This document shows positions 953 through 1,930 of a stretch of DNA of 4,795 nucleotides, piece after piece. The first letter of the stretch is position 1. Each line of letters starts with the position of its first letter. The notes below the pieces were generated by a model. The model worked only from the letters and a program-made list of their open reading frames with translations. It ran no database searches and was not told where the DNA came from. Made by a program: the position numbers and the translations under genes. Source of the DNA: a virus (taxonomy: Duplodnaviria > Heunggongvirae > Uroviricota > Caudoviricetes); the IMG/VR virus record IMGVR_UViG_2563366961_000005; one strand, written 5' to 3'.

Positions 953-1399
953 ATGACACGCAAAGAATATATTCACCAACTGGCACAAGAAATTATTAGC
1001 ATGAACCAGCCACTGATTGACCGTATTGTCACGGCTGAAGTCGATAAAATTAAATTTCAATTAGCATCGCTCGCGCCGAACATGGCGGCAATACGAAGCG
1101 AAATGTTGGCTGTAATGGGGTCAAACAGCGCTCTCGGCGTGTATTTAGCAAAGACTGATGAGTTAGCTGGCTTTAAATCCGCCGCCGCTACAGCGACAAA
1201 TAAAGCGCCTGATACACGTCAATATTTTGAAGGGGAATTAGACGATTTCACACGTCAATACTTCGATGGGGAATTGGACGATTTCACGCGCCAGTATTTC
1301 GACGGTGATGATCTGGTCAATAAAAGTATTCGTGAATATTTCGATGGCAGCGACGAGTTTAATCGCCGCTTAGACGACTATTTCCACATGGGAGAATAA
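953..1399 (+). CDS. hypothetical repeat-containing protein, 148 aa; acidic C-terminal region with five YF motifs
   Basis: RBS GGAGATAAG 7 nt upstream. C-terminal 60 aa contain QYFEG, QYFDG, QYFDG, EYFDG and DYFHMG, encoded partly by an in-frame 36-bp tandem repeat. Confidence 0.62.
   Translation: MTRKEYIHQLAQEIISMNQPLIDRIVTAEVDKIKFQLASLAPNMAAIRSEMLAVMGSNSALGVYLAKTDELAGFKSAAATATNKAPDTRQYFEGELDDFTRQYFDGELDDFTRQYFDGDDLVNKSIREYFDGSDEFNRRLDDYFHMGE
1214..1321. repeat. In-frame 36-bp tandem repeat: two near-identical units (1214-1249, 1250-1285) plus a degenerate third
   Basis: Unit 1 acacgtcaatattttgaaggggaattagacgatttc and unit 2 acacgtcaatacttcgatggggaattggacgatttc differ at 4 of 36 positions: three are synonymous third-position changes and one gives Glu->Asp. 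Confidence 0.85.
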
Positions 1400-1403
1400 A
1401 CAC

Positions 1404-1742
1404 ATGAGTTTTCTTGATATGGCACGCCAGCGTATTGCTATGGCGGTTAAAGCAAACGAATCAGCACCGGAACCGGACACTGCCGAACTTAACTTCAAAA
1501 AAGGGATGGTGCTTGTATTAAAGAACATCGATAAGGTCGATGAGAAGTTATTACAGGAAATGATGGTTGTGCTGATGGATAATCTGGAACGCCGCTTCGG
1601 TGGCAAACAGCCAGCAGAACAACAGCCAGTCACTAATACACGGCACGGACCGGAAACACCAGATATCAATACCTACTTTACTGAGCCAGCGAATAAACCT
1701 GGTAACAGTAAAGCACCGAATATTAATAGCTATTTCTATTAA
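1404..1742 (+). CDS. hypothetical protein, 112 aa; C-terminus carries two IN(T/S)YF motifs
   Basis: RBS GGGAGAA 7 nt upstream; start lies 4 nt after the previous stop. No recognisable domain. Confidence 0.6.
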   Translation: MSFLDMARQRIAMAVKANESAPEPDTAELNFKKGMVLVLKNIDKVDEKLLQEMMVVLMDNLERRFGGKQPAEQQPVTNTRHGPETPDINTYFTEPANKPGNSKAPNINSYFY

Positions 1743-1762
1743 TAAAAACTTGAGGAGAGATC

Positions 1763-1930
1763 ATGTTATTCATTAAAGCAAAAGTGAAGAAAGAAAATGG
1801 TGAGGAAGTATTTTCACAGGTCCGGAATGAAGTATTCCCCGGCGAATCACTTAAAGTTTTTGTGGAAGAGTTGAAGAAAAAGCATGGCAGTAACGCCGAT
1901 TTTTATTTCGATGATATTCACTATATCTAA
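1763..1930 (+). CDS. small hypothetical protein, 55 aa (MLFIKAKVKKENGEEVFSQVRNEVFPGESLKVFVEELKKKHGSNADFYFDDIHYI); not in the supplied ORF track
   Basis: Hand translation of 1763-1930. Near-consensus RBS GAGGAGAG about 5 nt upstream of the ATG; followed 10 nt downstream by a hairpin. Confidence 0.5.
   Translation: MLFIKAKVKKENGEEVFSQVRNEVFPGESLKVFVEELKKKHGSNADFYFDDIHYI

Follow-up and report, generated by a model that had tools for sequence, protein, structure and literature searches.

We analyzed a 4,795-nucleotide stretch of DNA, referred to below as the window, that is held in IMG/VR as the Caudoviricetes record IMGVR_UViG_2563366961_000005. The window is a fragment of a small phage-derived Escherichia coli island that has been cut by two copies of IS1, and every gene between the IS1 ends is on the + strand. 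Our subject is a small operon within it, whose conserved core in CPZ-55-type satellite-like islands consists of the genes for p103, p148 and p112. Two of these proteins, p148 and p112, carry Tyr-Phe (YF) dipeptides in their C-terminal tails, and we consider below what these tails may do. The features of the operon, with the basis for each, are as follows (ORF, open reading frame; AF2, AlphaFold2 model).

623-934, + strand: p103, gene 1 of the operon, an orphan (ORF list)
953-1399, + strand: p148, the YF-array protein, 148 aa (ORF list, alignments)
953-1174, + strand: predicted helical N-terminal domain of p148, aa 1-74 (alignments, AF2)
1175-1216, + strand: variable linker of p148, aa 75-88 (alignments)
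1217-1396, + strand: YF tail of p148, aa 89-148 (alignments)
1214-1302, + strand: 36-bp in-frame tandem repeat, 2.5 copies (Tandem Repeats Finder, repeat search, codon check)
1223-1384, + strand: span of the five YF dipeptides of p148 (invariant alignment columns)
1404-1742, + strand: p112, the second YF protein, 112 aa (ORF list, alignments)
1404-1607, + strand: predicted three-helix N-terminal domain of p112, aa 1-68 (AF2, alignments)
1608-1739, + strand: P/Q-rich tail of p112, aa 69-112, with YF codons at 1674-1679 and 1731-1736
1763-1930, + strand: p55, optional gene 4, 55 aa (ORF list)
1941-1961, no strand assigned: GC-rich hairpin ending the p103-p148-p112-(p55) operon (hairpin scan, seven-island alignment)

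The genes for p148, p112 and p55 all have canonical Shine-Dalgarno sequences 5-9 nt before their start codons. The p103 gene always precedes those of the YF proteins, and homologues with 38-49% identity were found at the same position in the comparison loci L003-L009 (comparison loci are denoted by L numbers throughout).

The original prediction, made from the letters of the window alone, described five YF motifs in the last 60 residues of p148, and these are present. Four fit the pattern xYF(D/E)G and the fifth is DYFHMG, close to the C-terminus (...DDYFHMGE). The dipeptides occupy residues 91/92, 103/104, 115/116, 129/130 and 143/144, encoded at 1223-1228, 1259-1264, 1295-1300, 1337-1342 and 1379-1384, with spacings of 12, 12, 14 and 14 residues. 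Five YF dipeptides were not reached in any of 100,000 composition-preserving shuffles of the protein. The in-frame 36-bp repeat that was proposed to underlie part of the array was also recovered. Tandem Repeats Finder reports a single array in the window (1214-1302, period 36, 2.5 copies, 84% matches), in register with the p148 frame ((1214-953) mod 3 = 0). Its full units, 1214-1249 and 1250-1285, are 89% identical; they differ at four bases, three of them synonymous and one changing Glu to Asp, and translate to TRQYFEGELDDF and TRQYFDGELDDF. The repeat thus encodes TRQYF(E/D)GELDDF twice and the beginning of a third unit.

The second YF protein, p112, ends as first described, with the motifs PDINTYF and PNINSYFY-stop. 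Two YF dipeptides in a protein of this composition have P = 0.005 by shuffling. The suggestion that the motif-bearing tails are acidic holds for p148, where the tail has a net charge of -11 over 60 residues and an isoelectric point of 4.16, but not for p112, where the tail is rich in P, Q, N and T (57% P/G/S/Q/N/T) and near neutral, with a net charge of -1.

We collected 121 distinct full-length homologues of p148 and 119 of p112, from at least 337 cluster representatives for p148, almost all from E. coli, and at least 241 for p112. The Tyr and the Phe of the motifs are 100% invariant in both sets. The p148 motif has the consensus (R/D)(Q/E/D)-Y-F-(D/E/H/G)-(G/M). Whether copy number varies between strains was raised at the outset as a check; it does vary, within narrow bounds, with five motifs in 116 of the 121 homologues, four in the other 5 and never more. 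The island of O157:H7 strain PV15-279 (L010) encodes a p148 with four units. In p112, all 119 homologues have two motifs of the form (T/I/A)-P-D-(L/I/F)-x-(S/T/N)-Y-F, the second of which is one residue before the C-terminus, such that the proteins end in ...SYF and one variable residue (D/E/N/Y/K/G).

Mean identity across the p148 homologues is highest in the tail (0.91), compared with 0.80 in the N-terminal domain and 0.55 in the linker. The most divergent homologue, P0123, is 28% identical in the N-terminal domain and 70% identical in the tail. We searched for proteins that had lost the YF motifs while retaining the rest and found none among the homologues, save two frameshifted alleles (P0122 and P0124), which are either decaying copies or sequencing errors. 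The C-termini of these two alleles read an alternative-frame ORF that is also seen at window positions 1266-1373.

Ratios of nonsynonymous to synonymous substitution (dN/dS, Nei-Gojobori method) bear out the proposal that the repeat is translated and under purifying selection. The p148 tail has a dN/dS of ~0.10 relative to L003, and the p112 tail has values of 0.12-0.24; for both tails together, dN/dS is 0.1-0.24 at dS from 0.66 to saturation. Given these low values, the p148 and p112 ORFs are translated and constrained. Compared with L005, dS is 0.065 in the N-terminal domain of p148 and saturated in the tail, a contrast that places a recombination breakpoint between the two modules. Independent recombination of domain and tail is expected of a module that keeps a fixed interface.

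The p148 tail is an old, degenerate array with a period of 12-14 residues that extends beyond the 36-bp duplication. Two architectures were distinguished. In type A tails (the window and L003), the first unit is duplicated, and after it come DDLVNKSI, SDEFNRRL and the terminal unit. In type B tails (L005, L008, L011 and L012), the first unit is single and leads into a distinct DDETNKRI unit, DPVFNAAI, PKEFRDQL and the terminal unit. Both total five units, with the YF fixed and the spacers replaced wholesale. That five units are reached by two architectures, and that 116 of the 121 homologues have five, suggests selection on valency. Units 1 and 2 of the window share 0.86 of their DNA sequence, more than the 0.67 shared by unit 1 and its L003 counterpart, which indicates that the duplication (or gene conversion) of unit 1 is recent; it is lineage-specific. 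No consistent pairing of tail type with TerS, p103 or tail-gene type was found in a small sample of seven islands.

The third protein of the original grouping, p55, does not belong with the other two. It does end in ADFYFDDIHYI, but a single YF in this protein is at chance level (P = 0.21). Only two close clusters were found among 5.8e9 proteins. A distant 60-aa homologue is encoded in L008 (25% identical, pairwise E = 8e-7), in which the terminal peptide aligns with AEFVIEDVKQV, keeping the alternation of hydrophobic and acidic residues and losing the YF. No p55 homologue was detected in L003-L006, and in L010-L012 no gene is annotated in its slot, between p112 and the p91 homologue. By charge-hydropathy analysis, p55 is classed as folded. 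Thus p55 is a separate, optional, predicted-folded small protein outside the YF-motif system.

Structure prediction gives low-confidence models for p148 and p112 (mean predicted local distance difference test score, pLDDT, of 52), which can be read in broad terms only. The p148 model has helices at residues 3-17, 19-55 and 60-78 with pLDDT of ~50-75, and a tail that is mostly below 50, within which short helices (98-105, 110-118, 120-131 and 134-145) fall between the YF motifs. The p112 model has three helices within residues 3-68 (pLDDT ~55-67) and coil over residues 66-112 that is below 50. Charge-hydropathy analysis classes the N-terminal domain as folded and the tail as disordered in each of the two proteins. 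Both tails are predicted, on this basis, to be disordered.

The p148 family is a narrow orphan. An exhaustive profile search of 1.84e9 cluster representatives returned two genuine full-length clusters, plus fragments and frameshifts, and thus no distant relatives. No match above threshold was obtained in Pfam, PHROGs, NCBIfam or PADLOC for p103, p148, p112, p55, p91 or p134; the top family match of p148 was GAPES3, at 19 bits relative to a cut-off of 27. When the models of p148 and p112 were compared with viral structures by Foldseek, no match reached E <= 0.001. Sequence and profile searches of the PDB gave spurious matches only, the best to a GyrI-like protein at E = 0.012. Scans for the locus in GTDB species representatives and IMG/VR found no confirmed relatives, and megablast and tblastn searches of deposited phages (50,697 phage genomes for tblastn) found no relatives of the YF proteins. 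In a six-frame translation of ~165 kb of island and flanking sequence, the YF motifs were found only in p148 and p112. We also asked whether p148 and p112 could be paralogues of each other, and detected no such relationship; the hhalign probability is 0.5% and the sole aligned stretch is APDtrQYFeg with TPDinTYFte.

The closest complete genome to the window is that of E. coli CEA106S (L001), which is 97% identical over positions 123-4700. Its island is uninterrupted, is ~12 kb in length and lies between eutB and eutA beside intZ, the position that the cryptic prophage CPZ-55 occupies in K-12. Of 5,426 complete E. coli genomes, 36 carry the p148-p112 pair, and in all 36 the two genes are single-copy, chromosomal, adjacent and co-occurring. 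Every context examined is an island of 9-12 kb, either at eutB/eutA or at rssA/ychJ, and the rssA/ychJ island has a different integrase and AlpA. The islands analyzed include L001:16640-28860, L003:7899-17621 and L005:4817-14365, as well as those in L010-L012.

The core gene order of the islands begins with an integrase, AlpA or HTH_17 with or without HNH, then p103, p148, p112, sometimes p55, and the hairpin. It continues with a promoter-like region, p91/YffM-like with or without YffN-like, TerS-like, p134/YffP-like and a variable zone of tail genes. The integrases are IntZ or a 388-aa integrase; Phage_AlpA (a weak match) was found in L003 and L004, and HTH_17 in L005 and L007. Other island genes include those for HTH_3 repressor-like, anti-repressor-like and HTH_36 replication-initiator-like (169-195 aa) proteins. 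The tail-gene zone encodes either gp10 and a tape measure of 730 aa or a tail assembly protein that resembles lambda gpI. Because the gpI-like gene replaces the gp10-like and tape measure genes in some islands, the tail-gene zone is swappable, and the YF operon and TerS module stay. No capsid or coat, portal, TerL or lysis genes were identified in any island examined. These islands form what we take to be a coherent satellite-like family at two or more chromosomal sites. The remaining features of the window are as follows.

1-92, + strand: 3' end of the left IS1 copy (inverted repeat with 4700-4791)
106-555, + strand: HNH endonuclease, HNH_3, with likely true start ATG 160 (Pfam, PHROGs)
2055-3652, + strand: second operon, comprising p91, TerS-like, p134 and gp10-like genes (Pfam, PHROGs, island comparison)
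2055-2330, + strand: p91, YffM-like (island comparison)
2414-2830, + strand: TerS-like protein with Sf6_terminase domain (Pfam, PHROGs)
2830-3234, + strand: p134, YffP-like (ORF list)
3206-3652, + strand: HK97 gp10-like protein (Pfam, PHROGs)
3662-4705, + strand: tape measure, N-terminal 346 codons of ~730 aa (PHROG 1538, E = 3e-47; full gene in L001)

The IS1 arms at 1-92 and 4700-4791 form a 92-nt, 100% complementary inverted repeat that brackets the island fragment, and in L011 the 3' end of the annotated IS1A matches both at 100% identity. In its arrangement the segment resembles an IS1 composite. The right copy cuts the tape measure gene after codon 346, and the left copy stands in place of everything 5' of the HNH gene. 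Insertion sequences also occur in other loci: L010 has an IS1203 insertion in eutB, and in L011 the IS1A is within the island. The HNH protein is 74% identical to the L001 copy, compared with 97-100% for the other window genes, and neither the AlpA-type island L003 nor L011 has the gene. As a module, HNH is mosaic and optional.

Seven islands keep the hairpin at 1941-1961, and their alignment shows that the changes in its stem are compensatory. On the + strand there is an A-run on its 5' side and no T-run on its 3' side. Between the hairpin and p91 (2055) are ~90 nt of conserved, promoter-like sequence ending in a TATACA-like element. The region 1931-2054 is probably an operon boundary with a promoter or regulatory site. 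Downstream, the stop codon of the TerS-like gene overlaps the start of p134 (ATGA, 2827-2833), and p134 and the gp10-like gene overlap by 29 nt (3206-3234), which suggests translational coupling in this packaging and connector operon. The p134/YffP-like family always follows the TerS-like gene. No Rfam families or tRNAs were found in the island or the window. The gpI-like protein mentioned above has 178 aa (L005:12084-12620, also in L006; PHROG 32, E = 3.5e-34). Several islands encode a YafO-family toxin and an upstream partner between the integrase and HTH genes (L010:7394-8243, L011:6951-7800 and L005:6574-7423).

Taking these features together, our tentative reading, to which we give a probability of roughly 0.4, is that p148 and p112 each combine a short helical domain, a variable flexible linker and a disordered tail, and that the YF motifs dock in a multivalent manner on a partner, probably a helper-phage assembly or packaging protein. 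Docking by the tails is a reasonable but unproven interpretation. We favor it because the YF is fixed while the spacers change, because five units are reached by two routes, because domain and tail recombine independently, and because the motif is restricted to p148 and p112 in the ~165 kb translated. The partner would offer several equivalent sites, as a ring or lattice does, each with a pocket that receives one YF pair, and the N-terminal domain would supply a second function, for example self-association or an effector activity. The partner class that we prefer is a virion-assembly or DNA-packaging protein of the helper (prohead, scaffold, portal or terminase ring), because the operon lies between AlpA/HNH and the TerS-like module, in islands with captured tail genes and no capsid genes. 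The operon may thereby help the island to exploit or interfere with a helper phage.

Several points weigh against this reading. The alignments are shallow (Neff, the effective number of sequences, is ~1.4-1.5), which may partly explain the low pLDDT, and the predicted helices between the p148 motifs make a folded repeat possible. The flanks of the motifs differ (R-Q/E/D-YF-D/E-G in p148 and PD-x-x-S-YF in p112), and the two proteins may bind different sites. The earlier idea of a partner common to both is a guess; beyond the YF itself and (A/T)P(D/N) at unit 1 of p148, the flanks are not alike. Both the partner of the tails and the mobilization of the islands (helper dependence, excision and packaging) are things that we infer. 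No primase/replicase or helicase was found in the islands, nor was a flanking direct repeat of 12 bp or more, and no deposited phage is close to the island genes. No helper phage could be named from the tape measure and TerS proteins; the best tape measure matches are 31-34% identical and partial TerS matches 32-47% identical, to unrelated phage groups.

The rival to which we give most weight, although it seems doubtful to us, is a p148 tail that folds as a small repeat domain, for example of short helices and YF-D-G turns, in which Tyr and Phe form the core and their conservation reflects folding. The position of the four predicted tail helices between the motifs fits this, as does a 12-14-residue period with conserved L/F/V between motifs, which resembles a structural repeat, and the Gly that follows YF-D is a typical feature of helix caps and turns. 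However, pLDDT is below 50 throughout the tail, its charge of -11 over 60 residues puts it on the disordered side of the charge-hydropathy boundary, and wholesale swapping of spacers between types A and B with the YF fixed is unusual for a folded core. A folded repeat also leaves p112 unexplained, as its Pro-rich tail cannot be a helical repeat and yet has the same invariant YF.

The same acidic tail (isoelectric point 4.16, net charge -11, aromatics interspersed) could instead make p148 a decoy or nucleic-acid mimic comparable to Ocr, ArdA or Arn. It would then bind a host or phage protein that itself binds DNA, largely by charge, and act as an anti-restriction, anti-defense or regulatory factor; its gene is early in the island, downstream of AlpA/HNH. 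We consider this quite improbable. It is Tyr, Phe and, for the most part, Gly that are invariant, while the acidic positions vary (D/E/H/G/N at +2); p112 shares the motif with a nearly neutral tail; and no anti-defense, defense or known mimic family was matched.

We regard as highly improbable the idea that p148, p112 or both are diverged homologues of P22-type scaffolding proteins that redirect the capsid size of the helper. The only tblastn matches of the two proteins in the 50,697 phage genomes are to annotated scaffolding proteins, at chance level (E ~7-8). Residues 40-87 of p148 align with residues 228-274 of the scaffold of phage Skarpretter (40% identity, hhalign probability 41%), a stretch that presumably, as in P22-type scaffolds, is just before the C-terminal coat-binding element. 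Against a seven-member scaffold profile, however, the probability falls to 1.8% (E = 0.028, 32 columns) for p148, which also weighs against the scaffold link of the docking reading, and p112 scores 0.3%. No Pfam or PHROG scaffold match was found for either protein, and a coat gene beside p148/p112 is absent in all islands examined. Moreover, the tail genes of the islands are of siphovirus type, whereas these scaffolds are from P22-like podoviruses, and scaffold C-termini are Lys-rich helices rather than a predicted-disordered tail with a net charge of -11.

That the ORFs are leftovers of a decaying prophage, with the YF pattern a by-product of tandem duplication, could be argued from the two IS1 elements that break the window island, the cryptic status accorded to K-12 CPZ-55 at the same site and the frameshifted p148 alleles, but it is effectively refuted by the conservation data: the 36-bp duplication gives only two of the five units, the others being old and diverged with the YF kept, the low tail dN/dS holds to saturating dS, the motifs are invariant across more than 240 distinct, intact homologues, and the genes have canonical Shine-Dalgarno sites.

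Returning to multivalent docking, a bolder form can be proposed in which the islands are an unrecognized class of E. coli satellites with TerS and swappable tail genes, and p103-p148-p112 is a new hijacking device, a two-protein multivalent tether with YF motifs that hold on to repeated sites of a helper assembly. The five motifs of p148 might then match a fivefold vertex or ring, and the effect of the tether might be to redirect capsid size, to load proheads with proteins or to sequester the packaging ring. Taken whole, we think that this is unlikely.

How the tails compare with characterized peptide systems bears on the docking interpretation. In the single-stranded DNA-binding protein (SSB), a folded domain and disordered linker end in a short acidic and aromatic peptide (DDDIPF) that docks partners. 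The likeness to SSB that was drawn at the outset goes no further than analogy: the plan of domain, linker and peptide may be the same, and the second p112 motif is one residue from the C-terminus, but the p148 motifs are internal and fivefold, and there is no DDD run, Ile-Pro-Phe, terminal Phe carboxylate or OB fold. Positions -1 to -4 before the YF are R/Q/E/D/T/F in p148 and D-(L/I/F)-x-S in p112. Closer to the SSB pattern than the YF motifs are the ends of YffN-family proteins (L003:11287-11643, L010:12189-12509 and L012:12229-12600), which have an acidic C-terminus tipped by Phe (…PVEEPDVF, …EQQIEDEF); K-12 YffN ends in …DAPLDC. Separately, in Escherichia phage Skarpretter a hypothetical protein of 151 aa, whose gene (L013:754-1209) lies between those for portal and scaffold, ends in a near-copy of the SSB tip (…KKDPDLDIPF). 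The beta-clamp motif, a Gln-Leu-x-Leu-Phe type pentapeptide with consensus QL(S/D)LF, was considered and rejected; the p148 logo, (R/D)(Q/E/D)YF(D/E)G, has no Leu at positions 2 or 4.

Among assembly proteins, SaPI1 CpmB, 80alpha gp46 and P22 gp8 are small, helical and often acidic, with a C-terminal end that binds the assembly lattice, and the internal scaffolds of satellites are encoded beside packaging genes. They have no detectable homology to the YF proteins, and their known binding elements are helices or helix-turn-helix structures, not YF arrays. Encapsulin cargo-loading peptides and the HK97 protease tail follow a plan of domain, flexible linker and short C-terminal peptide, with the peptide binding to the inner face of an HK97-fold shell. 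That plan is alike, with different sequences and one motif per chain. In Eps15 and epsin, DPF, DPW and FxDxF motifs bind the AP2 appendages, and in these proteins, as in FG nucleoporins, repeated acidic-aromatic motifs in disordered regions give avidity for a lattice or hub. These unrelated proteins from a different domain of life may be the closest parallel, by analogy, for how the tails work.

A variable Late zone, made up of late genes captured from helpers, has been documented in satellites (bioRxiv 10.1101/2022.07.18.500453). Gram-negative phage-inducible chromosomal islands (PICI) and helper-embedded satellites (bioRxiv 10.1101/2022.07.18.500453; ISME J 2018, PMC6092414) resemble the islands described here in having an integrase, AlpA/HTH_17, a length of ~10-12 kb, a TerS-type gene and a captured late-gene zone, with no capsid or lysis genes. 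Our islands differ in that they are without a recognized primase/replicase or Bro-N zone and are integrated at eutB/eutA or rssA/ychJ. We found no counterpart of the p103-p148-p112 operon in the accounts of such satellites that we consulted. K-12 CPZ-55 (intZ, yffL-yffS) shares the integration site and integrase family of the window-type island; its YffO and the TerS-like protein are 53% identical, and p91 is matched by the C-terminus of its YffM. However, CPZ-55 is without p103, p148, p112, p55, gp10 and the tape measure, and none of its proteins is YF-tailed. We found no paper that describes proteins of the p148 or p112 type or that classifies CPZ-55-type islands as satellites, and a paper on Tai tail interference proved to have no bearing on the operon.

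In summary, the sequence signal in these tails is unusually clean, with invariant YF, fixed motif number and spacing, and an orphan family confined to one type of island. Arrays of short motifs in disordered tails are a well known avidity device in eukaryotes, and to our knowledge few cases are documented in bacterial mobile elements. Should the tails bind a host hub, they would provide a compact natural peptide ligand. If their partner is an assembly or packaging protein of a helper phage, they would represent a new mode of satellite-helper interaction and would give a function to the long-ignored CPZ-55 islands.

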